From an uncultured Lentimicrobiaceae bacterium (GTDB lineage Bacteria > Bacteroidota > Bacteroidia > Bacteroidales > F082): DNA of 64,000 nt. Of the stretch, positions 14,737-53,108 are shown in pieces. The notes under the pieces are model-generated. The model made no database searches and was not told the DNA's origin. It was given only the letters and a program-made list of their open reading frames with translations. The number at the start of each line of letters is the position of its first letter. The first letter of the stretch is position 1. The DNA lies in the NCBI GenBank assembly GCA_964592175.1, contig CAZQBU010000004.1, positions 21,412-85,411 on the forward strand, in the 5' to 3' direction. The translations under genes were made by a program, and so were the position numbers.

Positions 14737-14888
14737 AATCACTGCAATACTCCTGATTCCTTTTATTTCATAAAATAGATCAAACAAAAAAAACAGCCCG
14801 GCATCTCCACCAAAACACATTTTGACCACAGCCATAATGAAACTTTCTTTATTTTTACAGAAACTTATACTGTGCAAAGTGTTTTCAG

Positions 14889-37000: not shown

Positions 37001-37203
37001 TCAGATATCAGTTTGCAAAACCGATTTATAAAACCATGAATGTAGGCGTATCATTATATGCCAGAAATATTCTATTGTGGACTGCATTACGTAATCTTGA
37101 CCCCGAAACCTCACAAGGTAATAACAATATGGGAGGTTCATTCGAAAGATTCTCATTGCCACAGACTACCAGCTATGGATTTGGTTTTGATATAACATTC
37201 TAA
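34006..37203 (+). CDS. SusC/RagA-family TonB-dependent outer-membrane transporter
   Basis: 1065 aa. Signal peptide, then a carboxypeptidase-regulatory-like domain (VTGKVTSSQDGEGIPGVTVRVKGTTIGAITNFDGYYEL). Plug motif (IESIDILKGQAAAALYGIRASNGVIIITTK) and a C-terminal beta-barrel ending in F. Confidence 0.9.
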   Translation: MRKITFMLVFLLAVGISGAFAQTRTVTGKVTSSQDGEGIPGVTVRVKGTTIGAITNFDGYYELNVRPEHRTLVFSFISMKTQEVELGAQTSINIEMEPDVIQIDEVVVTALGISREKKSLGYAVQTVADDELVRTGNTSLVGAMQGKIAGVDIKPSSGMPGASSQMVIRGARSFTGDNTPLYVIDGMPISSTAPYSTGNSVTGTDVANRALDINPADIESIDILKGQAAAALYGIRASNGVIIITTKSGRGLAAGRPVVTFNHNTSFDVVSRTPDFQTTYAQGSYGVYQPTASYSWGPKITDLPNDPRYGGNTDNSYTAEWGLQEGKYFVPQLDQAGVNPWLTPQVYNNWDDYFQTGYTVSNNLNVSQANADGNFAIGVSMTDQKGIALATGMKRYNAKASGERNLNKNFTVGYNANYSKSNIDKLSGANDGSLTGPLAAPSSYNLKGTPYHVPGDPYRQIYFRGGSFDNSYWVPDNNTFNEKNDRFFGNGFVNYIANLNEGMILRLRYQAGVDTYSTHFQDIFGYGSRGNSKGVIDNYGTTYALFNSTATANFDWKINSDFDFNFMLGNELNHSTRKTYWESGTDFNFGGWNHIGNASIVTAGEGQNSFRDVGVFGSLALSWRSMLFLNATGRNDVVSQMPRDNRTFFYPSVSLGFVVTELPGLDEVNWLSFAKLRASYAEVGQAGRYLENYYVTPGYGGGFWQSDPIQYPIGGVNAYMPSTTHYDPNLRPQNTASYELGVDLKFFDNRFGIDYNFSHQTVTDQIFPVPLAGSTGAAQLVMNGGKVQTDVHELMMYVTPVRTRQFQWDMSFNFAAVKNEVLELADGVESIFLGGFVTPQVRAGIGYTYPVIYGTSFARHENGEILVVDNPGAWNHGMPMTGEPAVIGEVSPDFILGATNTFSFKEFSLSATFEWKNGGEMYSGSNGLLDLYGMSSVTENRDDTFIFKGVKPDGTPNDIVRGGVNDPEAIQDLYANVLSDVDEYYIHDNSFVKLRELSLRYQFAKPIYKTMNVGVSLYARNILLWTALRNLDPETSQGNNNMGGSFERFSLPQTTSYGFGFDITF

Positions 37204-37211
37204 TTTAAAAA

Positions 37212-38669: not shown

Positions 38670-38702
38670 TATTAATTTTGTCGAAAATTAAATAGATAAG
38701 AT

Positions 38703-39509
38703 ATGAAAAAGATAAAATATTTAAGCTTTATTACCGCACTTATCCTTGTAATAACGGCTTGCGAAACCAAAGTGGTCGACCCAGCGGGTGACCGCGATGT
38801 AGCTCCCGTACCAGGAATAGTGGATTTGAACCCGGCTACCTTCGACGTATATAACCTGGAAACTACCTTTGTGAAGTTTACTGTTGTTTTAGATGACTCA
38901 AGAGTAAGTGAAGCAAAAGTGCTCGTTTCTTATAAAGGTAATAAAAAGCGTGTTGAAGTAGCAAAGGTGAGCAGCTTCCCGAAAACTTTAGAAATTACAG
39001 CAAAAGATGTGGCAGCCAAACTTGGATTACAGTTAGATGATGTGAAAGAAGCTGATGTGTTCAACTTCGAAGTACAAACTGTAGTTGGTGGCGATGTCTA
39101 TTTCTCCAGTGCAGCATTTAATGTTGCCGTAGTTTGTGCATATGATGTTGCAAATGTTTCAGGAGCATATACCGCTGTAAGTGAGGACTGGGGACTTGAA
39201 GCAGATGTTGAAATCGTGGTAGACCCGAATGATGACTATGTGCTTTATGTACACGGACTTGCTGAAGGAGACGGCCTTGTTGAAACCGGACCACTTAAGC
39301 TGGTTGTAGACGAGCTTGACTTTTCTGTTAAAGCCGGCAAATCAGTTTTAGCTGCCGATACCGAACCATGGGATCTTCCTTATACCGGATTCAACTATGA
39401 AGGCTCCGGTGAATTGAATACCTGTAACGGTACATATACATTAGCTATTACAGTAGGTGTAGACCAAGGTACTTGGGGATTGAAGAATTTCGTATTCACC
39501 AAGAAATAA
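38703..39509 (+). CDS. Hypothetical surface lipoprotein encoded downstream of SusC/SusD
   Basis: 268 aa, lipobox LVITACE and beta-rich sequence. Its position is analogous to SusE/F-like accessory lipoproteins, but I see no sequence signature. Confidence 0.45.
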   Translation: MKKIKYLSFITALILVITACETKVVDPAGDRDVAPVPGIVDLNPATFDVYNLETTFVKFTVVLDDSRVSEAKVLVSYKGNKKRVEVAKVSSFPKTLEITAKDVAAKLGLQLDDVKEADVFNFEVQTVVGGDVYFSSAAFNVAVVCAYDVANVSGAYTAVSEDWGLEADVEIVVDPNDDYVLYVHGLAEGDGLVETGPLKLVVDELDFSVKAGKSVLAADTEPWDLPYTGFNYEGSGELNTCNGTYTLAITVGVDQGTWGLKNFVFTKK

Positions 39510-39570
39510 AAACCTGAAATGAAATTGCTTGCTTGAGAAAATCAAATAGGCTATTTCTAATATATTTGTA

Positions 39571-39600
39571 AAAGGCTGCCTAATTGCTAGGCGGCCTTTT
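39571..39600 (+). terminator. Rho-independent terminator after the SusCD unit
   Basis: AAAGGCTGCCTA / TAGGCGGCCTTT, a 12-bp stem with one G-U pair and a 5-nt loop, ending in TTTT. Confidence 0.6.
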
Positions 39601-39704
39601 ACATTTTATAGCTGCCCAATAGTCTGGTTAAGGAAATGTATGAAAGAAATTTCATGGGAAAATGGATTTAAATTTTCTCCGGATAAAGCCGAAATATAGA
39701 ATGC

Positions 39705-40232
39705 TTATTGCTTTACGATTTGCTCCATGCAGCTTGGGCAAAAGTTTTTTGATTTTTGATCAATATCTTCCACATAGGTGCTTGATTGCATGACACAGTC
39801 CGGATGATGGCAGTGAATGAGCCCAAAGGAATGCCCGAGTTCGTGGTTGATTTCTTTGATGAGGCGGTCTTGTAATAATAAATCGTTCTTTTTTAAGCCA
39901 TAAAGCTCATTTTGCAAGCGGTATAGTGAAGCGATTGCCGAATTACCGTTTAAGTAGGCCTGCCCGAAAATGTATGTTAAAATTGGAATAAATAAATCTA
40001 CACTTACCAAGCCGATGGTTTTGTGCGATTTATGGTTTAATTCCTTTTCTACATAATCCAGCAGCATATTGGCATTATATTGTTTTCTGTTGGAATCGTA
40101 ATAAGGCTCAAGATCGTGAAAATGAACTTTTGTTTCTACAGTTAATTTAAACGAGTTTGACACATCTTCTGCAACAACTTCTAAAAGTTGTCTGTCAAAA
40201 TATCCTAAGCTTATTAATCGGATGACGGTCAT
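39705..40232 (-). CDS. Archaemetzincin-like zinc metallopeptidase (peptidase M54)
   Basis: 175 aa. HELGHSFGLIHCHHPDCVM then 16 residues then CPSC, which matches the archaemetzincin signature HExxHxxGxxHCxxxxCxM...CxxC. Confidence 0.85.
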   Translation of the reverse strand: MTVIRLISLGYFDRQLLEVVAEDVSNSFKLTVETKVHFHDLEPYYDSNRKQYNANMLLDYVEKELNHKSHKTIGLVSVDLFIPILTYIFGQAYLNGNSAIASLYRLQNELYGLKKNDLLLQDRLIKEINHELGHSFGLIHCHHPDCVMQSSTYVEDIDQKSKNFCPSCMEQIVKQ

Positions 40233-40282
40233 TTGGTATTTTTGAAATTTGAAAAAAGAACGGTTTTGATTCCTACTGTGTT

Positions 40283-41623
40283 TTATTCCGGTTTTTCAAT
40301 TTCATATTTCTTCATTTTATTATAAAGCGTTACCCTGTCAATGCCGAGTACCCTGGCAGTTCTGGAAATATTCCATTCATATTTTTCCAGTATCTGGTGA
40401 ATATGTTTCTTTTCCAATTCATCGAGGCTTTCAACAGTAGAAGTGTTTGCAGCTTTTGATAAGGGTAAGTCTCTTACTTTTATTTCTTTCCCATTGCCAA
40501 TCACTATGGCACGCTCAATCATATTTTCAAGCTCTCTCACATTGCCTGGAAAATCAAACTCTTGAAGACGCTCCAAAGCGGCTTTTTCAATTGTTACGAG
40601 ATTTTTGCTCATTGCGGTGCAGAATTTTTTAATAAAATGATCTACAAGCAATGGGATATCGCTTTTTCGTTCGCGTAATGCAGGTATTCGAATGTTTACC
40701 ACATTTAATCTGTAATACAAGTCTTCTCTGAAGGTGCCTGCGTCTACCATTTGTTTTAAATCACGGTTTGTGGCACATATTACGCGGAAGTCGGAAGTGA
40801 TTTGTTTGTTTCCTCCAACCCTCATAAAGCTTTTTGTTTCGAGCACACGCAGCAGTTCAATTTGCATTTTAGCAGAGATAGTAGCAATCTCATCTAAGAA
40901 AATGGTGCCGCTATCTGCCATTTCAAATCTTCCTTTACGGTTATATACTGCCCCTGTAAACGCTCCTTTTTCATGCCCAAACAGCTCGCTTTCCAATAAA
41001 CTTTCGCTCAAAGCACCGCAATGTACGCTGATAAGTGGGAAAAAGCGTCTTTGAGAGTTGGCATGTATGGCACGTGCAATAATTTCTTTTCCGGTACCGC
41101 TTTCTCCGGTCAAAATAACTGTTGCATTGGACTGTGCCACGCGTTCCACTTCTTTGAGCAGCTCTTGCATAGGCTCACTTTCTCCAATGATGTCCTCCAC
41201 ATTTTCCAAGCTAATGACCTGCTCACGTAAGCGCATATTTTCGTCTTTTAAATTCACTTGCAGTGAAGCATTTCGGATGAGGTGCGATAAATCATCCGGG
41301 TCGAAAGGCTTGGTGACATAATCGAATGCGCCATCCTTTAATGCTTGTACGGCAGTATCCACGGTGGCAAAAGCGGTCATCACGATTACAATGGCATCGG
41401 GCTTGAGGCTTTTGATGCGCTTAAGCATTTCCAAACCATCCATGCCGGGCATTTTAATATCCGTTAAGATGATGTCAAATACTTCTTCCTCAAGCATCTG
41501 CAATGCTGTTTTAGCATTTTCGGCACAGCTTACTCTATATCCGTCCTCCTGAAACCAATTGGCTAATGAGTCACGGACAGAAGATTCATCGTCTACAATA
41601 AGTAATGATATTTTTTTAGGCAT
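40283..41623 (-). CDS. Sigma-54-dependent response regulator (NtrC family: REC + AAA+ + Fis-type HTH)
   Basis: 446 aa. REC domain (LLIVDDE ... DIILTDIKMPGMDG). AAA+ Walker A GESGTGKE, GAFTGA sigma-54 contact loop and ESELFGHEKGAFTGA. C-terminal HTH ISRTARVLGIDRVTLYNKMKKY. Confidence 0.9.
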   Translation of the reverse strand: MPKKISLLIVDDESSVRDSLANWFQEDGYRVSCAENAKTALQMLEEEVFDIILTDIKMPGMDGLEMLKRIKSLKPDAIVIVMTAFATVDTAVQALKDGAFDYVTKPFDPDDLSHLIRNASLQVNLKDENMRLREQVISLENVEDIIGESEPMQELLKEVERVAQSNATVILTGESGTGKEIIARAIHANSQRRFFPLISVHCGALSESLLESELFGHEKGAFTGAVYNRKGRFEMADSGTIFLDEIATISAKMQIELLRVLETKSFMRVGGNKQITSDFRVICATNRDLKQMVDAGTFREDLYYRLNVVNIRIPALRERKSDIPLLVDHFIKKFCTAMSKNLVTIEKAALERLQEFDFPGNVRELENMIERAIVIGNGKEIKVRDLPLSKAANTSTVESLDELEKKHIHQILEKYEWNISRTARVLGIDRVTLYNKMKKYEIEKPE

Positions 41624-43313
41624 TGCTTTGTTTATTTTGATCTAATAGTGGGAAAGTGATATGAAAAGCGGTTCCTTTACCAAGCTCTGAACTGACTTCG
41701 ATTTTTGCTTTATGGCTTTGGATAATGCCATGTACAATGGCTAAACCAAGACCAATACCGCTTGCTTCATGTTTAGTAGAATAAAAAGGCTCAAAAATAT
41801 GTTCAATATTTTCCGGGTCCATGCCTCTGCCGTTATCGATAATTGAAATACGTACCGAGTTTGGATTGGGATTAAAAGTATGTAGGGTGATTTCGCCGGT
41901 GATATTCGGTTGCATTGCTTCACTGGCGTTCACTATCATTGCAATACAAGCTTGTTTAATCTGGTTTGGCGTGCATTGGATTAAATCTTCCGTTGCAGTG
42001 AAATGCTTGTTGAAGCTGATGTTTTTCATTTTCATCGGATGCTTCATCAACTCATGCGTACTTTCTAAAATATCGTGCAAATGACTGATTTCTTGATGTT
42101 CATCGTCTTTACGTGAAAAATCCAACAGCCCTTTTACGATATCACCGCAGCGTTTTGTTTCGTTTTCAATGAGTTTTAATTTGCTTAAAATACCTTGTTT
42201 CTTTTCTTCATCCAAATTGGGATTGCTAAGCTGTTTGTGTACTAATTTGGTATACACCAAAATACCTGATAAGGGATTATTCAGTTCGTGTGCTACGGAT
42301 GAAGAAAGTTTACCTAATGACGCAATACGTTCAATCTGAATGAGTTCTTGTTGCACCGAGCTCAGTTCCTCACTTTTTTTACGCACCTTATATTCTAATT
42401 GTCTCGACCAGTTTTCAAGTTCAATATTTGCGGCTTGAAGTTTGTCGAGCATTTTATTAAAAGCGTATGACACCAATTTAATATCGTCTAATTCGTCAGC
42501 CATCGGCTGTAGGCGGGTTTCGGTTTCACCCCTTGCCACCGAAAGACTTGCATCAATCAAGGCATTTAAAGGACGTTTTACATTCTTTTGGGTGAAAAAC
42601 ACCAAGAATAACGCCACTAATACGGTAATACTCAATGCAAACAAGAAATACTTGGTTGAAGACTCACGAATTGATGTGTCAAGCTGTCCCAGCGGCATCT
42701 TGATAATAAGTGAGCCCAACATGGTTTCTTCCGGGAAATGTGCATGGCAATCGGCTGTGAAGCAGGATGATTCGTTAAGTATTGGGTTTCTTATCAGCAG
42801 ATAACGCTCGTTATTGTCTGTAAGAAACATTTCGCATTTGCTTTTGCCGTCAATAATATGGTAGGTTTTTTCCTCTCCGGGAAAAATTTGATCCAAGGAG
42901 AGGTGGCAGTTCATGCAGTCCGGGTCTTCGTACTCATCTATGGGTTTGGTAGAGTAGGAGGTGTAAACCATATAGTCCGTATTGTCGTATAACTCCACCT
43001 CGTCAATACCCGAGAGTGTATTAATTAAATCTAGGGTGTTATAAAGTTCGGTTTTATCGTTGCGTAACATCGAATGATATAAAGCTCCCTCAACTATTGC
43101 TCCGACATTATTTCCGTTTTGATAAATCAAATTTTGCAGAAAATGCTCGTTAACCGTCCTGAATATAATTACATAAGTGCCTAGCAATAATGCAGATAGG
43201 GCTGCTATAATTATAACAACCCGGCTGTATATTGATGAATGAAACCGCACATATTGTTTGACGATTTTATTCTTTTTGGCTTTTGATTTCCTCCGCCACA
43301 TCCTTTTTGTCAT
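41616..43313 (-). CDS. Sensor histidine kinase with Cys/His-motif periplasmic domain, HAMP, HisKA and HATPase_c
   Basis: 565 aa. TM1 at aa 31-51. A periplasmic region of about 170 aa contains CMNCH (aa 133-137) and CFTADCH (aa 184-190). TM2 at aa 222-240, then HAMP, the H-box SSVAHELNNPLSGI and a G-box GIGLGLAIV. 8-nt overlap with the response-regulator gene. Confidence 0.85.
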   Translation of the reverse strand: MTKRMWRRKSKAKKNKIVKQYVRFHSSIYSRVVIIIAALSALLLGTYVIIFRTVNEHFLQNLIYQNGNNVGAIVEGALYHSMLRNDKTELYNTLDLINTLSGIDEVELYDNTDYMVYTSYSTKPIDEYEDPDCMNCHLSLDQIFPGEEKTYHIIDGKSKCEMFLTDNNERYLLIRNPILNESSCFTADCHAHFPEETMLGSLIIKMPLGQLDTSIRESSTKYFLFALSITVLVALFLVFFTQKNVKRPLNALIDASLSVARGETETRLQPMADELDDIKLVSYAFNKMLDKLQAANIELENWSRQLEYKVRKKSEELSSVQQELIQIERIASLGKLSSSVAHELNNPLSGILVYTKLVHKQLSNPNLDEEKKQGILSKLKLIENETKRCGDIVKGLLDFSRKDDEHQEISHLHDILESTHELMKHPMKMKNISFNKHFTATEDLIQCTPNQIKQACIAMIVNASEAMQPNITGEITLHTFNPNPNSVRISIIDNGRGMDPENIEHIFEPFYSTKHEASGIGLGLAIVHGIIQSHKAKIEVSSELGKGTAFHITFPLLDQNKQSNA

Positions 43314-43393
43314 TGTATCCTTCCTTAATTACAAAAATAGTGATTTTCAGATACAATCAGCTATTATTTGTTTAAAAATCTAAGCTACTCATT

Positions 43394-43975
43394 TCAAGAG
43401 CCACTAAACAGAAAATCTTGCGCCAAATCCTTCCATATTTCTTGAGGAAGTATCTGCAATATTTGAGGGCGTAATTCTCCGCCGTCATAAAGCACTTGCG
43501 CACTGCCTGCTTGATTATTTTTCCAAAGGGAGGCAGCTAAAAAGTCTCTGAAACGTATTGTTTCCGATTTAAACCATGCATCGGAACTTTCTTCGGCTAG
43601 GGTATGTGCTCTTTCATTAATCCAGTTGGAGGGCTTAATCGTAAATAGCCATGCTGATTCCTGCTTTGTGTCTGTATCTGCCAAAACAGCTGCTTCTTTA
43701 TTTATTGCTAAAATTTCTCCGGAAAGCGGACTAAGAATATCTAAATACTTATCTTTTTGTTGGATTTGGCCGATGTATTCACCTTTCGTTAATTTCGCCC
43801 CTTCTTGCAGCTGTGGGTTAAATTTCGCATCTCCGATGACTTTGCTTAGGAATGGTCCTAGATGAATGCGAATAGCCCCTTCCGACTCAACTATTAACTG
43901 TAAATGATTTATACTGTGGAAACTGCCTTTTTGGCTTACCAAAGAATCAAATTTATGTTTGTTTTGCTTTTTCAT
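43394..43975 (-). CDS. Soluble GcvH-like (lipoyl/swinging-arm fold) domain protein with C-terminal extension
   Basis: 193 aa. IGDAKFNPQLQEGAKLTKGEYIGQIQQKDKYLDILSPLSGEILAINKEA aligns by eye with the GcvH core (lGdivfvelPevG..v..gd.fg.vESvKa.sdlysPvSGevvevN). WLFTIKPSNW matches the GcvH GWlfkik block. Confidence 0.5.
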   Translation of the reverse strand: MKKQNKHKFDSLVSQKGSFHSINHLQLIVESEGAIRIHLGPFLSKVIGDAKFNPQLQEGAKLTKGEYIGQIQQKDKYLDILSPLSGEILAINKEAAVLADTDTKQESAWLFTIKPSNWINERAHTLAEESSDAWFKSETIRFRDFLAASLWKNNQAGSAQVLYDGGELRPQILQILPQEIWKDLAQDFLFSGS

Positions 43976-44146
43976 AAACTAATTATGCATTTAATTGTTA
44001 AAAAGAAGGCTGCCGCTTTGCCCGAATGCCAAGTTGTGGGCGTATTAGCTGACAGCCTTTATGTTTGCACGATTATCGCTTAGAACTTTTTATTTTGATT
44101 TCGCAAATGAAATATTATTAATTGATTATCAGTTCACTAAGTCAGA

Positions 44147-45643
44147 TTATTTTAAAAATTCAGCTTCGAATTCTACCCACATTTCAGGTGTCATTTCACT
44201 CATAAAGCCTGTTTTTAGTTCGCCACCGTCTTGATAAGCTACTGTTTCTAGGCTCATATACTGTTGATTAATCATGGAAGCAACAAACTCTCTCAAACGA
44301 TTAAATTCTTGTTTTACCCATTGACGATATGCATCTGCCATGAATAAAAACTCGGTTTCGCGTTTCCAGTTTGCCGGCTGAATTTTATAAATCCATGAGC
44401 TTGTCAAATCTTCATTTCCCATGATGGAATTGATGTCTTTGTTGATTTCGGTGATAACTCCCGAAACGGAAGCGATAAGCTTTACTTTTTTACCTTGGTA
44501 GTGAATGGAAGCAAGTACATCACCTTTTTTAATTTCGCTGTTGATGTCTTTGAATTCAATTTTGTCGGCTTTACCAAAGGCTTTGCGTAAAAAATCATCC
44601 AAACCGATTTTTACTTTTCCTGAAGTTTCTAAAAATGCCCAAGTATGGGTTTTGTCGTACAGCAAACCGTTTGGCGTATCCAATGCTTGTGGAGCAAAAT
44701 CTTCACTTCTATTTTCCTTAGCCATGCTGTAGCCTTTTGCTTTTCTGCTTAAGAGCAAGGTTACTACATAACCTGCAATTGCTATTCCTGCGATAATAAT
44801 GAGTAGGAGGGCAGCCCAATTATCTTTTGTAGCTGCAGATTCTTCGGTTTGAATCGGATTAATTGCTTTTACTTGTGCAATCAGTTCGTGTGGTTTTGGA
44901 TTTGCAAATCCGTGCTCGGCAAGAATTCCTTTTCCGGAAGCAAGCATCCAGCTCATATAATTAATGTCGGCTTCGCTCAACTCAAGTTCATAGCTTACAA
45001 GACTCAAGTTGTTCATCAAAATACGGGGATATTTTCCAACCCACAGTGCATGCTGTAAGCTTTCGATTGATGAATAAAAATCTTCTTGTGCATCAATTTT
45101 TCCGTTTCCGTTTCTGTCAACAGCTATAATTTGGATGGCTGCAGACGGATTTTCTTCCATGAAGCGGATATAATCGGATAAATAACAGAATCCGACTGCC
45201 GTAGGATTTTTAGTTGCCATTGCAACGAAATTTTCGATGCTTCCGGCAGCTTCTGCTTGTATACCGTTATTAAATCTGAAATTTAAATGACTAATTATAT
45301 CATCAGTAATATAGGTAATGGTGTTTTCCATAGGATTGGAAAAATATGCAAAAGGAATACCTTGTTCCATTAGCTCTACAATCTCCGGATTGTTTTGTGC
45401 GCTAATTGGAATAATTGCATCGCGTGCAATTAAAAACTGATGAATTGCTGTGCCTTCATTACGAATTAGATCGTTGTCAGTTTGAATCACTAAATTAAGT
45501 TGTGAAGCATCAATTTTATCCGAAGGGATTGCTTCGGTAACAATGCTTTCTACTTGTTCTGCTTTCGTGAAATTTGGATTGAAACTTGCAAAAGCTGTGT
45601 TGATGATCATCAGAAGGCTGAAAAGAATTAGGTTTGTTTTCAT
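44147..45643 (-). CDS. Membrane protein: signal peptide + periplasmic domain of about 250 aa (substrate-binding-protein-like) + one TM + cytoplasmic GcvH-like domain
   Basis: 498 aa. Signal peptide MKTNLILFSLLMIINTAFA, TM at aa 276-298. The GcvH-like region is aa 326-445 (44309-44668): YDKTHTWAFLETSGKVKIGLDDFLRKAFGKADKIEFKDINSEIKKGDVLASIHYQGKKVKLIASVSGVITEIN ... WIYKIQPANW. The C-terminal tail is paralogous to that of 43394..43975. Confidence 0.5.
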   Translation of the reverse strand: MKTNLILFSLLMIINTAFASFNPNFTKAEQVESIVTEAIPSDKIDASQLNLVIQTDNDLIRNEGTAIHQFLIARDAIIPISAQNNPEIVELMEQGIPFAYFSNPMENTITYITDDIISHLNFRFNNGIQAEAAGSIENFVAMATKNPTAVGFCYLSDYIRFMEENPSAAIQIIAVDRNGNGKIDAQEDFYSSIESLQHALWVGKYPRILMNNLSLVSYELELSEADINYMSWMLASGKGILAEHGFANPKPHELIAQVKAINPIQTEESAATKDNWAALLLIIIAGIAIAGYVVTLLLSRKAKGYSMAKENRSEDFAPQALDTPNGLLYDKTHTWAFLETSGKVKIGLDDFLRKAFGKADKIEFKDINSEIKKGDVLASIHYQGKKVKLIASVSGVITEINKDINSIMGNEDLTSSWIYKIQPANWKRETEFLFMADAYRQWVKQEFNRLREFVASMINQQYMSLETVAYQDGGELKTGFMSEMTPEMWVEFEAEFLK

Positions 45644-45690
45644 GATTATAATTTTTTTAGATTATTTTTTTATCAATTTACCTTTATATA

Positions 45691-45707
45691 GGCGAATACC
45701 GTGCCAA
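45691..45707 (-). promoter_or_regulatory. Candidate sigma-54 (-24/-12) promoter for the 45643..39705 operon
   Basis: The minus strand reads TTGGCACGGTATTCGCC. TGGCACG matches the -24 element exactly, the spacing is GG-N10-GC, and the -12 element is TCGC versus consensus TTGC. The -12 GC lies about 48 nt upstream of the ATG at 45643. The operon encodes a sigma-54 activator. Confidence 0.5.
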
Positions 45708-45748
45708 ACTTTGTAAAGTATCAGTAAATCAACAAGATACACTAAATA

Positions 45749-45877
45749 GTTGAAAAAATATACAACGCTAACTGTTGAAAAAATATACAGTCATATCCGG
45801 TTAGTTGCCTAAGCAATTGATAATGAACATTATAAGTTGAGTGTTTAAAAATGCAACAGCTGTTGAAAAAATATACA
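45749..45877. promoter_or_regulatory. Three perfect direct copies of GTTGAAAAAATATACA (candidate activator-binding/UAS sites)
   Basis: Copies at 45749-45764, 45774-45789 and 45862-45877; copies 2 and 3 share an extended CTGTTGAAAAAATATACA. They lie 42-170 bp upstream of the putative -24 element, in the 622-bp divergent intergenic region. Confidence 0.4.
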
Positions 45878-46265
45878 TACACTTGTAACAAATTGGAAGA
45901 CTGTGGATTGTATTAATGGATTTATTCTATTCGATGCTGTTGTGTCAATAAGTAGGATGAAAAACAAGTCCAATCTTTCTTTCCGAAAAAAACAACTTTA
46001 TTCAAACTATTACATGCTTGTTCGAGAAAAATGAGGCAAGTTGCAGATTCATGAAATATAGATTTGGAATGATTTCCTCAAGCTGCATTCGTGTATTTTA
46101 AAAATGCCAATGCTTTAACATCTAAAACTTTATCATCTGATTTTGTTGTCATCTTATTTTTAATCTTACTTAGATTAATTATAAATTGCAGGAAATCAAC
46201 AACTAAGCGATTTTATAAGCCAAACTTTGTTTAATTTAGATGCAAAATATTTGAAGGGATAGCTT

Positions 46266-49200
46266 ATGAGTCAGTATATCAAAATCACTATAAATGGCAA
46301 GCAATTAACCGGCTTCGAGGGCGAATCCGTTTACGATTGTGCATTGCGTCATGGAATTGAAATACCTTGTATGTGTTATGATCCACGATTGGAACCCTTG
46401 AACTCTTGTGGTATTTGCATGGTGGAAATTGAAGGCAAGCAGCGCTTACATTCTGCAAACCTCACCTATTTATATAAGGATATCTCAATAATTACTGAAA
46501 GCGATGTGCTTAGTACTTATCGCCGAAAAACTTTGGAAGATAAGCTTCGTACTCATTTTGCAGATTGCCTACCACCTTGTACTACGGTTTGTCCTGTTGG
46601 AGTTGACATTCAAGCTGTGATTGCATTACTGAAGAATAATAGGCTTCAAGATGCTGCATATCGCCTGGCTGAACGGAATCCGCTTGCAAATATTTGTGCT
46701 GCAATTTGTCCGCACCCTTGCGAATTTGCTTGTGGTGAAAGACATGATTCAAATGGCTCCAAAGTTTCAATCAGGGAGATTGAGAAGGCTGTTGCCGCAC
46801 AACGGCAATCGCTTATTGAAGACAATAAAATTGAATCTAACGGAAAGTCGGTTGTGATATTTGGCTCCGCTGCGGCTGCCTTGCTGGCATCCTATTTATT
46901 GAATCAAAAAGGATATCGTGTACAAATACTTGATTCCTCTGCTTCTTTCGGAGGCTGGATGCGTACTGCTGCCCGGGATAAGCAGCTTTCAGAGGGCTTA
47001 TTGGATAAAGACATTGATTTTATTGCTGCTTCTGGTGTAGACTTTTCTTCCTTAAAGGAGTATGAGGAATCATCTATATTATCGGAGGTTTTACAAAAAG
47101 CAGATGCATTATTGCTTACAACAGAAATAATGGATTCAAGTCGTTTGGCTCAACTTATTCGTGATTTACATTCGAATGATGACTCAATCATGGATAAAAC
47201 GCAATTGCAAGCCCTATCAGATTCCTTGCAAACTGCAATTCCTTTTGTATTTGCCTTAAAAGATTTTGATGAAAAACCTGAATTGTTTGTTGATCAACTA
47301 AAACAAGCCATTATAGCAGCTGATTCGATTGATAGCTATCTTATGAATCGTCCTTTTAAACCGCAATCTGAAGCGTTTTTGAGTAAAAAGAAACATTTTA
47401 TTGCGGTTGATATACCTCATGCCACTGCCGAAATCAGTCAAAGTTCTCAAAATATTTCGGATATAATTGCTGACTGTACTGAATGTGGCTGTTTGAGCTA
47501 TTATGACTGCAAGTTGCGTTTGTATTCCGACCGTTATGGTGCCAAACAAAAGGATGTGGATAGGCGTGTCATCGATATGAAGATTGACAGCCGCCATCCA
47601 TTCATACGATTGGAGCCTGCAAAATGTATAGGATGTGGGCGCTGCGTGCGTGTTTGTGCGGAAATAGTGGGTGCTAAGGCATTGGAAATGCGAGAAACCG
47701 AAATAAAATCCTTTGCTGCCCCTGTGAATTCATTAGCTTTGACAGAAACCAATTGTGAATCCTGCGGAATGTGTATTACAAGCTGTCCGGTAGGAGCAAT
47801 TTCTGAAAATCATGACTTTAGTTTTGGTCCATTACCTGTACAAGCCATACATTCGATTGATATGGTAGGCTCCGAAGGTTATGAAATTGAACTATTCAAT
47901 TACCGTGATGCCTTATATGCCGCAAGACCTTTGCAGCATGAAATGAACCGCTTGAGTTTGATCAACCGCCGTCAGTTATTTGGATATAAGCATTTTAGCG
48001 ATAGGGATCGTATTAGTAAACCCATGCTTCGTACAGTAGATACCTGGAAAGAAATTGAATTTCAAGAAGCTTTTAAGCTGATTGCGGAACGTATAAAAGC
48101 AGTTTCAGCGGATGAAAATGCATGTTTTGGAGGTGCCCGCCTATCGAATGAAGAATTATATATGATACAAAAGCTGGCTCGCACCGGCGCAAAAACCAAT
48201 AATACGGCAAGCTTCCATTATATGGGAAGGGGGGAAGGCTATGTACGAAATTCCAATGAAAATGCGATTTATTGCGATATACGCGGTGCTTCAAAACTGT
48301 TTGTGGCAGGAGGGGAGCTGCACTTGAATCATCCTATCGTAAACCACCTGATTATGAATACCCGCCATAAGGAAGGTATTGAATTGGTGCATATTACGAC
48401 AAAAGCTGATTCCTGGTTTAGTAAAAAAGCCGATCAACAAATTCGGATACGCAATTATTTTCACTTCATTAAAGCAGTCAATTATTACATCATTAAAGAA
48501 AAACGATATAACGAAGATTTCGTAAACAGCCGTACCGAAGACTTTGAAGCATATATGAAATCCATGCTTTCGGAAGATTATGATACCTTGTTGCGTGCAG
48601 CCGGTGTAAGCCATGAAGTAGTTTCCGGTTTTGCCGAAGATTATATCAATGAAATGAATGCCCTGCTTATTTTTGAAGAAAAGGAGCTTTCGGCAAATAC
48701 GGGTATGTCCATGCATAATTTGGCGATGCTTACCGGCAAATTAGGTAAGACCGCCACCGGTATCATTGCGCTAAAAGAGCGAAATAACAGTCACGGAATT
48801 TTCGATATGGGGGTCAGCCCGCAGCTTGGCCCCGGTGCAGAAGCTATTTGCGATCCTGATTTGCAATACCGCATGGCATTCTTATGGAAGACGGACGAAT
48901 TACCTTCTACTATTTTGGATGTGAATACGTTATTCCATCAAGGCAAGTTGCGTAATGCCTTTATCTTTGGTGAAGACCCTGCAGGATGTGCCGTAGATAA
49001 GGAGCACATCATCGATAAGCTGAAGCAGATTGACTTTTTGATGGTTCAAGACTTCTTTATGTCGGATACGGCACGTATGGCGGATTTGATACTTCCGGCT
49101 TCTTTCCCATGGGAGATGGGGGGAAGTTATACCAATTCGCAGCGGCGTATACAGCAGATTGACAAACAATTAGAAGGACCGCTTCGCATGAATTCATTTG

Positions 49201-49442
49201 AACAGTTGCTGGAAATCACAAAGCTATTGACACTCGTAACTACCGACAGTCCGCAAGAAGCAATGGATGAAGCCTTAAGCTTGTTTCCAAGGCGTGGAGA
49301 TTATAAAGAACTGCGTTTTGTGTACAAAGAAAAAGACAATGCCAACCGTCAGTTTGAATACGGATGCGATGTGCTGAATAAGCGTATTGATGAAGAATTT
49401 GCCGAAAAGTTGGGTGGGAAGTTTGTTGTTGCTAGTACTTGA
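46266..49442 (+). CDS. Multidomain Fe-S protein: 2Fe-2S ferredoxin-like + GltD-N-like Fe-S + degenerate FAD/NAD Rossmann-like + 2x[4Fe-4S] ferredoxin + molybdopterin-oxidoreductase (Fdh/NuoG)-like domain lacking canonical ligands
   Basis: 1058 aa. IPCMCYDPRLEPLNSCGICMVEIEGK resembles a NuoG/Fdh 2Fe-2S domain. CLPPCTTVCPVGVDI...NPLANICAAICPHPCEFAC resembles the GltD N-terminal domain. KSVVIFGSAAAALLASYLLNQKGYRVQILD and FVFALKD resemble the Rossmann region and the GD motif. KCIGCGRCVRVCAE and CESCGMCITSCPVGA are ferredoxin motifs. DRISKPMLR, SNEELYMIQKLAR and DFLMVQDFFMSDTARMADLILPAS are MopB blocks. Confidence 0.7.
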   Translation: MSQYIKITINGKQLTGFEGESVYDCALRHGIEIPCMCYDPRLEPLNSCGICMVEIEGKQRLHSANLTYLYKDISIITESDVLSTYRRKTLEDKLRTHFADCLPPCTTVCPVGVDIQAVIALLKNNRLQDAAYRLAERNPLANICAAICPHPCEFACGERHDSNGSKVSIREIEKAVAAQRQSLIEDNKIESNGKSVVIFGSAAAALLASYLLNQKGYRVQILDSSASFGGWMRTAARDKQLSEGLLDKDIDFIAASGVDFSSLKEYEESSILSEVLQKADALLLTTEIMDSSRLAQLIRDLHSNDDSIMDKTQLQALSDSLQTAIPFVFALKDFDEKPELFVDQLKQAIIAADSIDSYLMNRPFKPQSEAFLSKKKHFIAVDIPHATAEISQSSQNISDIIADCTECGCLSYYDCKLRLYSDRYGAKQKDVDRRVIDMKIDSRHPFIRLEPAKCIGCGRCVRVCAEIVGAKALEMRETEIKSFAAPVNSLALTETNCESCGMCITSCPVGAISENHDFSFGPLPVQAIHSIDMVGSEGYEIELFNYRDALYAARPLQHEMNRLSLINRRQLFGYKHFSDRDRISKPMLRTVDTWKEIEFQEAFKLIAERIKAVSADENACFGGARLSNEELYMIQKLARTGAKTNNTASFHYMGRGEGYVRNSNENAIYCDIRGASKLFVAGGELHLNHPIVNHLIMNTRHKEGIELVHITTKADSWFSKKADQQIRIRNYFHFIKAVNYYIIKEKRYNEDFVNSRTEDFEAYMKSMLSEDYDTLLRAAGVSHEVVSGFAEDYINEMNALLIFEEKELSANTGMSMHNLAMLTGKLGKTATGIIALKERNNSHGIFDMGVSPQLGPGAEAICDPDLQYRMAFLWKTDELPSTILDVNTLFHQGKLRNAFIFGEDPAGCAVDKEHIIDKLKQIDFLMVQDFFMSDTARMADLILPASFPWEMGGSYTNSQRRIQQIDKQLEGPLRMNSFEQLLEITKLLTLVTTDSPQEAMDEALSLFPRRGDYKELRFVYKEKDNANRQFEYGCDVLNKRIDEEFAEKLGGKFVVAST

Positions 49443-49555
49443 TGGATATGAGCTATAAACTAGCACATAGGTAAGAACCATTGTTTCATTAAAAAATAAT
49501 GGTTGAAACTATATAAAAAGTGATTTAATATCCAGAAAAATTAAATTGTTGGAAT

Positions 49556-51484
49556 ATGGCTAAAATGCGTATAAAACTTGACGAACTGGCAAACCCAGAT
49601 GAGAAGAAAGTATATAAAATTCTTGAAACTAAATTGTCAGATGATTATCATGTTTGGCCTAACTTTAATTTTCATAAAGTTGGCCGTGAAATAGATTTTG
49701 TAATACTTCATCCACTTGACGGTATATACGTCCTTGAAGTTAAAGGTTGGTTAAAACAAAATATTAACTTTAACAGTGAAGGGAAATTACAATTTGTTAA
49801 TTCAAAAGGTGAGAAATCGATACAATCAAATCCATTAGATCAGGTTAAATTAAATGTTCAACTGATATTGGCTGAATTAATAAAGAAAGTAGAATTTCAA
49901 CAAGATTCCGGATATTATAAGGGGAGATTAATATTCCCTATTAGTTATGGCGTTGTTTTTACTAATATTCGTGCTGAAGAAATTGAAAAAAATAATTGGT
50001 CAGAAAAATTCCCCCTTAATTCGATTTTAGATAAAGGGTTTGCTAATGGTGAATACTTCAATGAACAGGATTATGAAGACTCTTTAAAACAACTTAGGAA
50101 GCTGACATATACTAATCCAAGAAGCTTAACTAATAAACAGTGGGAAATTATCTCTAGTTTCTTTGGTACTACTATTATTCAAAATGTAAATGATGATGCG
50201 GTTATAGGGGTTTTAGATGAGTTTCAAGAGGAGTTAGTTCGCCATGAAATAACTAAAACTGTTATTTTTGAAGGTCCTGCCGGAAGTGGTAAATCAATAG
50301 TATTAGTTAATCGAGCAGAATTTATTCATGAGCAAAACCCAAATAGTAAAATTGGTGTATTTTGTTTTAATGTTGTGATGGCTAATATGTTAAGAAGTTT
50401 GCTGAATAAGAGAGAGTTTAATGATAATATAGAAGTACATCATTTTGATAGCAATTATATTGATAAGTTTCCAGAAAAATACTTTGATGCAATACTCATA
50501 GATGAAGCTCAAGATATGGAAGATAAACATTTTAATAAAATATTCGATCTTTTGAAAACTGAATCCTTATCAATATTTTATGACCCAAAACAAAATATAT
50601 ATAATAGGAGTAGTTTGCAGTCTCTACTTGAAGGACATGGTATAGTTGCAGAGTATACTAAGAAATTAATTCGTCAACAAAGGTCACCTCTACTTTTACT
50701 TGCACAAATCATGTATGATTCGATTATGCAGTTTGAAGAAGATGATAGTGATATATATATAGATAATATAGATCAAGTCATTGAGAAAGTCCTTAGTCAA
50801 GCACCTCAATATTTTGAATCTGCTTCGGACCCAATTTCATCAATTGCCACTGGTGCAGCTAGACATTTTACTATTGAAGGTCAAGAATTATCAGAGCTTA
50901 CTTTAACTGAAATGCTATCTTTTAGAATTGAAGTAAAAGAAATGAAATATGTTAAAGATATTATTAAAGATTTCATTGAAATTATTAAGGATTTTGTTGA
51001 TGTAGAGATAGCTACTTATAATGATTTTGCTATTATTTTTCCAGCGCGTAAACTATATGATGGTTATCAGGCTGTTTCAATCGAATATTGGGCTAAAAGA
51101 TTATTTGAGGAAGAAAAAATTCCAATTCGGATTATTAATAATAAACAAGGAAGAGTTATTCAAGCACCGGAATTTGAGGAGATTATGGAAAATGATAATA
51201 GAGAATTTGATTTTGAGGATGATGTAGTGCGATGTACTACTATAAATCAATTTAAAGGGTTAGATGCAAAATATATTGCGATAGTTGGTTTTGAGAATAT
51301 AACAAATCGTATTGAGAATAATCGTTATACTGATTTTGAATCAGATAAAAAGAAAAGTGCATCCTTGGCTTATGCGGGACTAACACGAGCTACTGAACAA
51401 TGTTGGGTTTATTATATACAATCAAACAAATCAATAGAAATTTTAGAGCATGTGCTTGAAAGTGAGTATTTAGTTTTTAGCTAG
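49556..51484 (+). CDS. NERD-domain nuclease fused to a UvrD-like SF1 helicase (P-loop NTPase)
   Basis: 642 aa. N-terminal NERD pattern (EKKVYKILETKL..YHVWPNFNF...REIDFVILHPLDGIYVLEVKGW). Walker A GPAGSGKS and Walker B AILIDEAQD. The C-terminal blocks TTINQFKGLDAKYIAIVGF and AYAGLTRATEQCWVY are UvrD_C-like. The gene is strongly AT-rich. Confidence 0.8.
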   Translation: MAKMRIKLDELANPDEKKVYKILETKLSDDYHVWPNFNFHKVGREIDFVILHPLDGIYVLEVKGWLKQNINFNSEGKLQFVNSKGEKSIQSNPLDQVKLNVQLILAELIKKVEFQQDSGYYKGRLIFPISYGVVFTNIRAEEIEKNNWSEKFPLNSILDKGFANGEYFNEQDYEDSLKQLRKLTYTNPRSLTNKQWEIISSFFGTTIIQNVNDDAVIGVLDEFQEELVRHEITKTVIFEGPAGSGKSIVLVNRAEFIHEQNPNSKIGVFCFNVVMANMLRSLLNKREFNDNIEVHHFDSNYIDKFPEKYFDAILIDEAQDMEDKHFNKIFDLLKTESLSIFYDPKQNIYNRSSLQSLLEGHGIVAEYTKKLIRQQRSPLLLLAQIMYDSIMQFEEDDSDIYIDNIDQVIEKVLSQAPQYFESASDPISSIATGAARHFTIEGQELSELTLTEMLSFRIEVKEMKYVKDIIKDFIEIIKDFVDVEIATYNDFAIIFPARKLYDGYQAVSIEYWAKRLFEEEKIPIRIINNKQGRVIQAPEFEEIMENDNREFDFEDDVVRCTTINQFKGLDAKYIAIVGFENITNRIENNRYTDFESDKKKSASLAYAGLTRATEQCWVYYIQSNKSIEILEHVLESEYLVFS

Positions 51485-51586
51485 TTTATGGCTTTCAAAT
51501 AAATTTATAGTTTATTATCTACATCTAATAGGATATTTCATATTTCGCATCAGTTGGCGATTCCTATTGGCAAGCGCTAAAAAAAT

Positions 51587-51612
51587 AAGGTGTTACTTTT
51601 CAGCAACACCTT
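51587..51612. terminator. Hairpin between convergent genes (possible bidirectional terminator)
   Basis: AAGGTGTT / AACACCTT, an 8-bp stem with a 10-nt loop. An A-run precedes it (a T-run on the minus strand) and an AT-rich tract follows. Confidence 0.4.
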
Positions 51613-51635
51613 ATATTATGTAGCACAAAAAAATA

Positions 51636-53108
51636 TTAGAATTTAAAACGTGTGGTCAAAACAAAATGATTGTTAATAATCTTTTGTTGGGTAGGATTGG
51701 TAATCCAATTATTGGAGCTGTACAAGAAATAATCTTGATTCATGCTACCGTTTATCCAGGCTAAATCCAATCCAAAATTATTTTCCGAATATCCTATTCC
51801 GAATGAAATATTTTGCAGTGCGCCATCATTCACTCCTTCTGCATAGGGGCTTCCATATAAGGCATAGCCCCCACGGAAGTTGAAGTTACTGAAACGCCAT
51901 TCTGTTCCAAAGCGGAGGTTCACCACCGACTGGAAATTATTTTTTATTGAATTGTTTTCATTGTTAAAGCTATAATCATTTGCTCTGAGGCGCATTTTGC
52001 TGTAGTCAACAAACTCCACATCTGCACTTATCAAGCCCAGATTACCAAAAATAAATGCAGCACTTCCTGTGCTACGCAAAGGCGTGCTCAGCTCGTACAT
52101 ATATTCACCGGTAGGCGAATCTTTTTTGTTGTAATCCGGTCCGATATATGCTTCAGTACTTGTTTGCCACACATCCATCAAATTACCGTAATAGGTGGGC
52201 GTATGTATGGAGGCTCCTAATCTGAGCCAATCTACGGGCCAGGCGATGACACCCAGCTTGAAGTTCAAGCCCCAGCCGTGTGTTTCCAAGAGTTCGGTAT
52301 AGCTCCATTCGTCAAAGTCGTACACATCTTCCCACACCAGATTATATTCCGTGAAGGTGGTAGAGCGGTAAAAGCGCGTATAAGGCAATCCCAGGGTACC
52401 ACCTATATATAATCTGTCATTCAAGTTGGCACCTGCAGAAAACAGCCATTCATTGGTGGAGCCGTAGCTGCTCATCACTTCTGACTGCAGCAATCCACCC
52501 GGTGGAATAGGGCTGTCATAATATAATAGTCCGTCGCTGCCACGGATGGTGTCAAGCACATATACATACCATGCTGGATACAAGTCAAACGGATAATTAT
52601 CCTGATTGATGTTTGCAGGATCCACTCCGTCGAGCCTGTCTAAATAAATATCGATTAAAGAATGTTCCCAATTTTCGCCTTCTATTGCACTTCTGCTTCC
52701 AAAGTGATTGGTACGATTCATTCCGATACCATAATGATAAAATTTCCATGGAGAAGTTTTACCGTTCATCTGAGGTATTTCATTTGTAAATACCATTCCG
52801 AAGTTTCCAAGGTTAAAGCGCATACGCGAATCATCGGCAAATGAGTTGTTATATGTTGACTCGATGCTTCTATTGAAGAGCCCCGGGCTGAAGCTAAATT
52901 CGGAGCTTCGATATAATGCGATACCTGCGGGGTTTGTGCTGAGTGTTGAAAAATCGGCACCCAAAGCCCCAAATGCCCCTCCCATTGCCATGCTACGGGC
53001 TGTGCCTTGGTAAAACTGTTGTGATAATCGAAGTGCATCAACTTCATTTTGAGCTGTCAACAGTGTGGCAGTGAGCAGGAAGGATGCAATAATCAGTATT
53101 TTTTTCAT
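51636..53108 (-). CDS. FadL/PorV-like outer-membrane beta-barrel protein
   Basis: 490 aa. Signal peptide ending TAQ. GTARSMAMGGAFGALGADFSTLSTNPAGIAL resembles the N-terminal hatch motif of FadL-superfamily barrels. C-terminal TTRFKF. Confidence 0.5.
   Translation of the reverse strand: MKKILIIASFLLTATLLTAQNEVDALRLSQQFYQGTARSMAMGGAFGALGADFSTLSTNPAGIALYRSSEFSFSPGLFNRSIESTYNNSFADDSRMRFNLGNFGMVFTNEIPQMNGKTSPWKFYHYGIGMNRTNHFGSRSAIEGENWEHSLIDIYLDRLDGVDPANINQDNYPFDLYPAWYVYVLDTIRGSDGLLYYDSPIPPGGLLQSEVMSSYGSTNEWLFSAGANLNDRLYIGGTLGLPYTRFYRSTTFTEYNLVWEDVYDFDEWSYTELLETHGWGLNFKLGVIAWPVDWLRLGASIHTPTYYGNLMDVWQTSTEAYIGPDYNKKDSPTGEYMYELSTPLRSTGSAAFIFGNLGLISADVEFVDYSKMRLRANDYSFNNENNSIKNNFQSVVNLRFGTEWRFSNFNFRGGYALYGSPYAEGVNDGALQNISFGIGYSENNFGLDLAWINGSMNQDYFLYSSNNWITNPTQQKIINNHFVLTTRFKF

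Follow-up and report, generated by a model that had tools for sequence, protein, structure and literature searches.

We report that an uninterrupted open reading frame (ORF) of 1058 codons (46266-49442, forward strand) in a 64,000-nucleotide stretch of DNA from an uncultured Lentimicrobiaceae bacterium (contig CAZQBU010000004.1; the whole stretch is called the window below) derives from the NfnA/StnC-type (BfuA type 1) large subunit of electron-bifurcating transhydrogenases of the Bfu type, of which it is a short, orphan form. The original prediction, which was made from the sequence of the window, had described the gene as a formate dehydrogenase/NuoG-like fusion in which several cofactor motifs appear to be lost, possibly a pseudo-enzyme or an electron-relay scaffold. 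We consider it likely that the ORF encodes a conserved, orphaned and cofactor-depleted descendant of NfnA/StnC, which would act as a flavin-free iron-sulfur (Fe-S) relay, store or scaffold. Loci and proteins used for comparison are denoted by L and P numbers, respectively, and "short form" refers to the 1058-amino acid (aa) protein and its relatives with the same deletion.

The ORF belongs to the NfnA/StnC family

Pfam matches in the encoded protein are Fer2_4 (aa 4-77), Fer4_20 (aa 101-179), a weak NAD_binding_8 (aa 198-238), a Fer4_7/Fer4_Nqo3 two-cluster ferredoxin domain (aa 445-512) and Molybdopterin (aa 582-972; hereafter, MopB), which is the order previously proposed for the protein, namely, 2Fe-2S, GltD-N Fe-S, Rossmann-like, two 4Fe-4S and MopB. 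Pyr_redox_2, Molybdop_Fe4S4 (PF04879) and Molydop_binding (PF01568) have no Pfam match in the 1058-aa protein. The best sequence matches in the PDB are 9bov_A (E = 4e-98) and 8oh5_C (E = 2e-93), proteins of ~1,170 aa with a domain order identical to that of the ORF, and these two outrank every formate dehydrogenase (Fdh) and complex I subunit. The same two entries came out on top (E ~5e-53) in a fold search with an AlphaFold model of the ORF (mean predicted local distance difference test (pLDDT) score of 72, and 80-97 in the MopB part).

The two structures are StnC of the Sporomusa ovata StnABC transhydrogenase (8OH5) and NfnA of Caldicellulosiruptor saccharolyticus NfnABC (9BOV), both NADPH-oxidizing large subunits of Bfu-type electron-bifurcating transhydrogenases (PMC10482914, PMC11829005). 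In these enzymes, electrons pass from FAD to two GltD-type clusters, then to NuoG-type clusters including a [2Fe-2S] cluster, and on to cluster B1 in the NuoF-like subunit; the Fdh-like domain is "catalytically inactive," with an "incomplete" pterin site and no pterin density, its two clusters are a dead-end "evolutionary remnant," and its role is in tetramerization and docking of the NuoF/NuoE-like core (PMC10482914, PMC11829005). Bacteroidetes are known to have Nfn-Bfu enzymes, and the cluster content of BfuA is known to vary (PMC9304861).

The ORF has the NfnA/StnC domain order (2Fe-2S, GltD/NfnL-like module, NuoG-type clusters and pterin-free Fdh-like domain) and nests within this family in neighbor-joining (NJ) phylogenies. 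Curated NCBIfam models score far below their cut-offs, with 253 vs 666 for TIGR01591 (Fdh-alpha), 193 vs 470 bits for TIGR01973 (NuoG) and 203 vs 916 for the "putative NADPH-dependent glutamate synthase small subunit" model, and no nuo genes are found nearby. Given the best sequence and fold matches, the formate dehydrogenase/NuoG-like framing is not supported: large subunits of the NfnA/StnC type from Bfu transhydrogenases, and neither FdhA nor NuoG, make up the parent family.

Cofactor sites lost only in the short form

We compared residue columns in profile-guided alignments with 14 database homologs and ~55 species-level genome relatives from Bacteroidota and Ignavibacteria. Five features that are strictly conserved in all ~55 full-length relatives are altered only in the ORF and its near copies: the fourth Cys of the [2Fe-2S] site, the GxGxxG motif, a cluster-ligating Lys, the NADPH motif GGGNTAMD and the GD motif.

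A net in-frame deletion of ~175 aa has removed the whole NADPH-binding Rossmann sub-domain, including GGGNTAMD, which is present in ~55/55 full-length relatives. The intact proteins have ~210 aa where the ORF has a 35-aa junction (TEIMDSS...LQALSDS, aa 286-320; 47121-47225), and ~25 aa more are deleted ahead of aa 400. What is left of the two-dinucleotide-binding architecture of GltD/NfnB(L) is Fer4_20 and a degenerate first beta-alpha-beta unit. Judging from its motifs, the FAD site appears to be degenerate as well. The glycine motif GxGxxG (GAGPGG in the family) reads GSAAAA (aa 200-205; 46863-46880); the flavin-site motif GGWLRYGIPEYRLP (GGxLRYGIPxxRLP) has become GGWMRTAARDKQLS, with the Arg retained and the remainder lost (46950-46991); and the GD motif, FAAGDGVTGP in the family, is FALKDFDEKP (47250-47279), AAGDGVTGP being replaced by ALKDFDEKP at aa 330-338. 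The readings GSAAAA for GxGxxG and KD for GD, both noticed earlier, were reproduced in the profile-guided alignments.

At the flavin-proximal [4Fe-4S] cluster, which has three Cys and one Lys as ligands in the family, the three Cys are kept and Glu173 (46782-46784) replaces the Lys (K170 in StnC and NfnA). This Lys is strictly conserved in StnC, and the corresponding residue is Glu in NfnB (PMC10482914, PMC11829005). In NfnB (of NfnAB), the presence of Glu as the ligand has been linked to a low potential of the proximal cluster.

In the N-terminal [2Fe-2S] domain (46275-46496), C37, C48 and C51 are present, and the column of the fourth ligand, which is Cys in 14/14 database homologs and ~55/55 full-length relatives, has Asn65 (LHSANLTY, 46446-46469; C65N, codon 46458-46460), as had been suspected. 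Thus, the four-Cys [2Fe-2S] site on the path to BfuB is not found in the ORF and is found in P0047, a representative of the sister short-form sub-lineage described below. A Gln-to-His replacement three residues before the lost Cys (His62; 46449-46451) is seen in the window, L001 and L006, and not in P0047; from its position, His62 could be a replacement ligand of the [2Fe-2S] cluster (3 Cys + 1 His).

The NADPH sub-domain deletion and the Lys-to-Glu replacement at aa 173 were overlooked in the original prediction, as were a cluster motif at aa 404-415 and the absence of partner genes, both presented below.

Losses common to the family or to the closest relatives

The Mo-ligand column of the ORF reads TNNTASFHYMGRG (aa 644-656; 48195-48233), with SFHY where the control FdhA (L080) has HCARLCH. 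The same alignment columns in FdhA show TNNVDHCARLCHG and VCPYCGCGC, so the alignment is in register, and the missing Mo-ligand Cys/Sec is confirmed. This column is never Cys in the 14 database homologs and ~55 genome relatives. The former N-terminal [4Fe-4S] site of MopB (47850-47975) has D532, G535, Y539 and N567 in place of the four Cys in the profile-guided alignments, which bears out the reported replacement of this cluster, and the closest intact relatives (P0002-6/L002) have lost it too, with replacement residues identical to those of the ORF. The Cys of this site were also lost independently in the otherwise intact L007, L009, L011, L031, L045, L052 and L060, and such repeated loss is consistent with the published view of the cluster as a dispensable dead end. 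The C-terminal barrel, rightly noted as absent, has no PF01568 match in any family member examined. Accordingly, among the losses listed earlier, those of the FAD motifs and the [2Fe-2S] Cys are special to this gene, whereas those of the Mo ligand, the barrel and the MopB cluster are not, because relatives share them.

These observations bear on the possibility that the ligands are merely shifted and that the ORF is a working molybdoenzyme, be it an NAD(P)H-linked formate dehydrogenase or some other one; such a shift had been named as an outcome that would refute the reported losses. Although the protein shows overall similarity to Fdh-alpha and NuoG models, the TIGR01591 and TIGR01973 scores given above are far below the cut-offs, the Cys/Sec ligand is missing in an alignment controlled with FdhA, the PF04879 cluster, the PF01568 barrel and the NADPH domain are absent, and the solved relatives are pterin-free. 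This alternative is therefore refuted at the sequence level, and we assign it a negligible probability.

Retained clusters, scaffold and purifying selection

All 19 of the 19 Cys in five [4Fe-4S] motifs are retained. Seven of these, for two clusters, are in the GltD/NfnL-type Fer4_20 domain (C101, 105, 109, 144, 148, 152 and 156; 46560-46802); four form the motif C404-x2-C407-x-C409-x5-C415 (47475-47510) at the NuoG N5-type cluster position; and the others belong to two intact CxxCxxCxxxC(P) motifs (C454-464 and C497-507), found together with H444 at 47595-47789. The cofactor-less MopB/Fdh-like domain (48009-49181) is the best-modelled portion of the ORF and among its most conserved. It is followed by a clade-specific C-terminal tail (49284-49415); identity in this tail is 92% from one short-form sub-lineage to the other, 76-78% with intact L002 and ~32% with other relatives. 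The retained clusters probably still assemble, and the Fdh-like domain probably still oligomerizes.

The ratio of nonsynonymous to synonymous substitution rates (dN/dS) is 0.15 between the window and L001 (73 synonymous and 43 nonsynonymous differences; Fisher test vs neutrality, p = 5e-23), 0.10 between the window and L006 (211 and 96; p = 7e-81) and 0.13-0.18 within the P0047 group, with 0.06-0.09 for MopB in the latter. By domain, the comparison with L006 gave 0.03 for Fer4_20, 0.05 for MopB, 0.06 for the Fe-S block, 0.10 for the 2Fe-2S domain and 0.24 for the flavin-domain remnant (Fisher p = 6e-11). If the 307 substitutions were neutral, ~14 of them should have created stop codons, and there are 0. 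These codon comparisons show strong purifying selection on the ORF in two sub-lineages. Selection maintains the open frame, the 19 [4Fe-4S] Cys, the Fdh-like scaffold and the clade-specific C-terminal tail.

The short form is 44% and 38% identical to the intact protein P0004 in the 2Fe-2S and Fer4_20 domains, respectively, compared to 92% and 97% between P0004 and P0005, whereas the MopB core evolved at the family rate (67% vs 72% in a relative-rate comparison). In the electron-transfer half, constraint was thus relaxed or redirected, not abolished, and the scaffold half was never released from it.

A non-functional relic, that is, a slowly decaying pseudogene, would fit with the loss of several cofactor sites and both partner genes, the progressive erosion of the FAD motif and the 2Fe-2S ligand, and the faster divergence of the N-terminal half compared to relatives. 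However, this explanation is largely refuted by the dN/dS of 0.10-0.18 in two independent sub-lineages, with p values down to 7e-81, by the lack of any stop or frameshift across lineages that are just 55% identical, and by the conservation of 19/19 cluster Cys and of a block in the promoter region, so that we regard it as highly improbable. The description of the gene as a pseudo-enzyme or electron-relay scaffold was fair, given that neither an active Mo/W formate dehydrogenase nor an NAD(P)H flavoenzyme is possible, but "pseudo" in the sense of decay is contradicted by the strong purifying selection.

Loss of the partner genes

In intact relatives, the big subunit is the third gene of an operon, after a NuoE-like and a NuoF-like gene. 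Such genes are located immediately 5' of the big subunit in ~50 of the ~55 full-length relatives with upstream sequence, and likewise in L081-83. Synteny with the window extends over both flanks of L002, the closest intact locus. The gene order in L002 is sigma54 response regulator (RR), histidine kinase (HK), GcvH243, NrfD, Fer4_11 and GcvH512, followed by the divergently oriented NuoE, NuoF and the 1237-aa subunit, and the window has the frame of L002 minus NuoE, NuoF, NrfD and Fer4_11. NuoE/NuoF-like genes are absent within 8-10 kb around each of nine short-form loci (window, L001, L003-6, L084, L086 and L089), and elsewhere in the 64-kb window there is no NuoE/F homolog or other ferredoxin-type/Fe-S motif. 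Co-encoded BfuB (NuoF-like) and BfuC (NuoE-like) subunits are thus found neither in the window nor in any short-form locus.

The divergent intergenic region of 622 bp in front of the ORF (45644-46265) is collinear with the 601 bp before nuoE in L002, so the truncated gene now directly follows the promoter region of the ancestral operon. A conserved block is located at ~46170-46215, ~60-100 nt 5' of the start codon. When the intergenic regions were screened for gene remnants with a very permissive tblastn search, no match to nuoE, nuoF, nrfD or the Fer4_11 gene fell below E = 0.3. A scan for sigma54 promoters (TGGCAC-N5-TTGCW, at most one mismatch) gave 6 matches vs ~3 expected, none of them in the intergenic region, and Rfam and tRNA scans of the window found no RNA genes. 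As a weak lead, a sigma54-like sequence with two mismatches to the consensus, TGGCACGGTATTCGCC, is present on the minus strand 5' of the GcvH498 gene (45691-45706). The same region contains three direct copies of (C)TGTTGAAAAAATATACA (45748-45764, 45772-45789 and 45860-45877), which are partly conserved in L002 and may be regulator binding sites.

Two other family members, L045 (10001-13486) and L074 (10001-13384), have intact flavin, NADPH and 2Fe-2S motifs and no NuoE/NuoF-like genes within 10 kb, and unlinked or differently partnered big subunits may thus exist elsewhere in the family. Along these lines, the short form might still act within a Bfu complex as its "A" subunit, binding a NuoF/NuoE-like bifurcating core encoded elsewhere in the genome, with some other electron donor in place of NADPH. 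The Fdh-like domain, to which the B and C subunits bind in the solved complexes, evolves at the family rate and is the most constrained part of the protein, the clusters nearest to the former exit retain all their Cys, and the arrangement in L045 and L074 would be a precedent. Nevertheless, we find this explanation unlikely, given that the [2Fe-2S] cluster on the published route to the NuoF-like subunit lacks one ligand in the window lineage, that no NuoE/F homolog is found in the window or near the nine short-form loci, and that the linked ancestral copies were deleted outright.

A short-form clade and the order of events

Near-identical copies of the short form (identical or 96%) are present in four further assemblies, and a 92% copy was found in a Lentimicrobiaceae metagenome-assembled genome (L006). 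A word-indexed protein search returned the 96% copy as the sole short-form match; P0047, a 1078-aa protein that is 55% identical to the ORF and aligns with it end to end, surfaced only in an exhaustive search of representatives. Three P0047 variants (L084, L086 and L089) lie in the same orphan context, with the order M54 peptidase, RR, HK, GcvH238, GcvH500 and then the divergent short subunit, and the genes downstream of this subunit correspond to the ones that follow L002. In NJ trees of three different regions, the short forms make up one clade, which is the sister group of L002 on the MopB domain. The phylogenetic check proposed earlier for a conserved degenerate clade therefore came out positive, with a monophyletic clade of two sub-lineages.

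P0047 shares with the ORF the NADPH-domain deletion, the Lys-to-Glu replacement, the degenerate GD and YGIPEYRLP motifs and the partner-gene losses, and retains the fourth 2Fe-2S Cys (LQPACSTY). The FAD glycine motif forms a series, from GSGPGG in P0047 to GSGPAA in L006 and GSAAAA in the window. Because P0047 still has the Cys and GSGPGG, the partner genes and the NADPH domain were lost first, and the FAD site and the 2Fe-2S ligand eroded later.

A proposed scenario

In the intact enzyme, NADPH reduces FAD in the GltD/NfnL-like module, and the Fe-S chain feeds the NuoF/NuoE-like bifurcating core through the [2Fe-2S] cluster, with the pterin-free Fdh-like domain serving only for tetramer building and partner docking. 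We propose that, in the ancestor of the short-form clade, a clean deletion of the nuoE- and nuoF-like genes brought the big gene next to their former promoter region, the NADPH domain was excised in frame, and the Lys ligand of the flavin-proximal cluster was replaced by Glu. The ends of the electron wire, by then useless, would subsequently have eroded stepwise, via GSGPGG, GSGPAA and GSAAAA, and with the loss of the fourth 2Fe-2S Cys. We infer that NAD(P)H, flavin, Mo and formate play no part in the chemistry of the present protein. It would be a multi-[4Fe-4S] relay, an electron store or an oligomeric scaffold, probably exchanging electrons with a low-potential carrier or another protein via the cluster exposed by the deletion and retuned by the Lys-to-Glu change. 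The functional role is only inferred, and a relay, store or scaffold function is speculative.

Several points weigh against this interpretation. The N-terminal half has diverged much faster than in intact relatives, indicating that constraint is relaxed in comparison with the parent enzyme despite the low recent dN/dS. The [2Fe-2S] site of the window lineage has three Cys, and if the cluster is lost, the old electron chain is interrupted. The search for partner genes covers the 64-kb window, so partners may be encoded elsewhere in the genome. The confidence of the AlphaFold model is low in the Fe-S regions, too low for arguments on cluster geometry. Finally, the clade is small and the evidence narrow, with two sub-lineages that each consist of a few closely related genomes or metagenomes.

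The neighboring GcvH cassette and other features of the window

Divergently from the ORF, on the reverse strand, the window contains a reduced cassette (39705-45643) consisting of GcvH498 (44147-45643), GcvH193 (43394-43975), HK (41616-43313), sigma54 RR (40283-41623) and an M54 peptidase (39705-40232). In GcvH498, a signal peptide and ~270 aa of external domain are combined with a single transmembrane (TM) helix and, on the cytoplasmic side, a GcvH-like domain; the protein is one of a large family in Bacteroidota, in which a PBP-like domain is annotated for many members. In L109 (9001-17233) and L110 (9001-17251), a GcvH498-type protein heads a seven-gene cassette with no Nfn genes nearby, which in full comprises PBP-TM-GcvH, HmcB/HybA-like Fer4_11, HmcC/HybB-like NrfD, a ~240-aa GcvH, HAMP-HK, sigma54 RR and M54 peptidase. 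This cassette is widespread in Bacteroidota and apparently uncharacterized (compare also L002 1-7013). The short-form genomes lack the two redox-core genes of the cassette (Fer4_11 and NrfD; HmcB-like and HmcC-like, respectively), and the lost HmcB-like Fer4_11 protein carries a twin-arginine translocation (Tat) signal. Both GcvH-like genes of the window are under purifying selection, with dN/dS of 0.03 for GcvH498 and 0.21 for the other.

Because L109 and L110 have the cassette without Nfn, it is an independent unit that merely adjoins the Nfn operon in L002 and the short-form lineage. We initially considered the adjacency as evidence of a functional tie to Nfn and dropped it, given that the same cassette occurs without Nfn genes. 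The joint reduction of the cassette and the Nfn operon is suggestive but does not amount to evidence for a functional link.

Recruitment of the short form by this membrane-protein cassette with GcvH domains, where it might, for instance, replace the lost HmcB/HmcC-like module as an Fe-S partner on the cytoplasmic side under sigma54 two-component control, could explain why adjacency and divergent orientation are kept in every short-form locus and L002, why the Fe-S and quinone subunits of the cassette were lost in exactly those genomes with a stripped Nfn operon, and why GcvH498 is so strongly constrained. Nonetheless, we think it quite unlikely, considering that the adjacency may be mere synteny, with the cassette being widespread without nearby Nfn genes, and that the lost HmcB-like protein was periplasmic, as its Tat signal implies, whereas the ORF product has no signal peptide. 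More broadly, the short form might represent a new functional class: having shed flavin, nucleotide-binding site and partners, the subunit would serve on its own as a low-potential multi-[4Fe-4S] module that stores or relays electrons or senses redox state, together with the adjacent reduced GcvH cassette and under sigma54 control; we put this forward as a doubtful but not far-fetched idea. If it were true, the locus would document the modular "de-evolution" of an electron-bifurcating complex into something else.

Downstream of the ORF, a gene for a NERD-domain/UvrD-like helicase (49556-51484, forward strand) coincides with a stretch of low GC content (0.31 over 50-52 kb). The window, L001 and L003-5 have this gene, and the otherwise collinear L006 does not, so that it is a recent insertion just downstream of the ORF; its dN/dS of 0.35 is the highest in the region. 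The synonymous divergence (dS) between the window and L006 is 0.01-0.04 for the SusD, M54, RR and HK genes (37200-43300) and 0.28-0.40 for GcvH193, GcvH498, the big subunit and a 490-aa gene (~43300-53100), a sharp jump that indicates a recombination boundary near 43.3 kb. Elsewhere in the window, a 1258-aa type IIG restriction-modification enzyme (DUF7149/DUF7814, Eco57I/MmeI-type methylase and TaqI_C) is encoded within 13103-18665 on the forward strand, following a gene for an M78/IrrE-like peptidase, inside a low-GC island (GC 0.34-0.35 over 12-16 kb).

Comparison with known systems

The ORF product resembles StnC (8OH5/8OH9) and NfnA (9BOV/9BP5) in the succession of 2Fe-2S, GltD/NfnL two-cluster, FAD domain, NuoG-type clusters and a pterin-free, barrel-less Fdh-like domain without a Mo ligand. 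It differs from these in being ~115-120 aa shorter (~175 aa shorter than its closest intact relatives) through the NADPH Rossmann deletion, in its degenerate FAD motifs and the Lys-to-Glu change, in the loss of the fourth 2Fe-2S Cys and the MopB N-terminal cluster, and in the lack of adjacent NuoF-/NuoE-like subunits. The intact Bacteroidales/Lentimicrobiaceae proteins P0002-P0006 (1232-1237 aa; L002) are 53-59% identical to the ORF, and 62-67% in the MopB core, and share with it the D/G/Y/N residues at the lost MopB cluster and the clade-specific C-terminal tail. The flanks of L002, with the GcvH cassette and HK/RR, are syntenic with those of the window, and its downstream genes are the same as those of L084. 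Unlike the ORF, P0002-P0006 have kept the NADPH domain, GAGPGG, GD, the Lys, all four 2Fe-2S Cys and the NuoE/NuoF genes.

The NAD+-dependent Mo/W enzymes FdsA/FdhA (6TG9, 7VW6) and Escherichia coli FdhF (1AA6) share the MopB fold and a NuoG-type Fe-S N-terminus with the ORF, which in contrast to them has no Cys/Sec Mo ligand, MopB N-terminal [4Fe-4S] cluster or domain IV barrel and has an added GltD-type insertion. NuoG/Nqo3 likewise carries a cofactor-less MopB scaffold after 2Fe-2S and 4Fe-4S clusters, but the ORF differs by the GltD-type insertion, the absence of a nuo operon context and the low TIGR01973 score (193 vs 470). NfnB/NfnL of NfnAB(SL) and GltD have the Fer4_20 two-cluster domain in common with the ORF, and Glu at the flavin-proximal cluster is the NfnB state; however, NfnB and GltD bind FAD and NADPH, whereas the ORF lacks the NADPH domain and has degenerate FAD motifs.

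Because five of the tested defining features of NfnA/StnC are missing, the ORF does not fit the labels transhydrogenase subunit, formate dehydrogenase or FAD-dependent oxidoreductase. This is a warning for annotation, the automatic names "formate dehydrogenase major subunit," "FAD-dependent oxidoreductase" and "molybdopterin oxidoreductase" being inapplicable here. A literature search found no paper on an NADPH-domain-deleted orphan form of NfnA/StnC. The taxonomic range of the short form is narrow, a few Lentimicrobiaceae-type bacteria; if a function is found, it would reveal what the "dead-end" Fdh-like domain and the side clusters of NfnA/StnC do alone. Bfu enzymes are usually described in terms of modular gains, with catalytic modules added to a conserved BfuBC core. 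The locus analyzed here presents the reverse, a dismantling in stages, in which the core and the NADPH module were removed, the ends of the wire eroded ligand by ligand, and the middle clusters and the scaffold stayed under selection.

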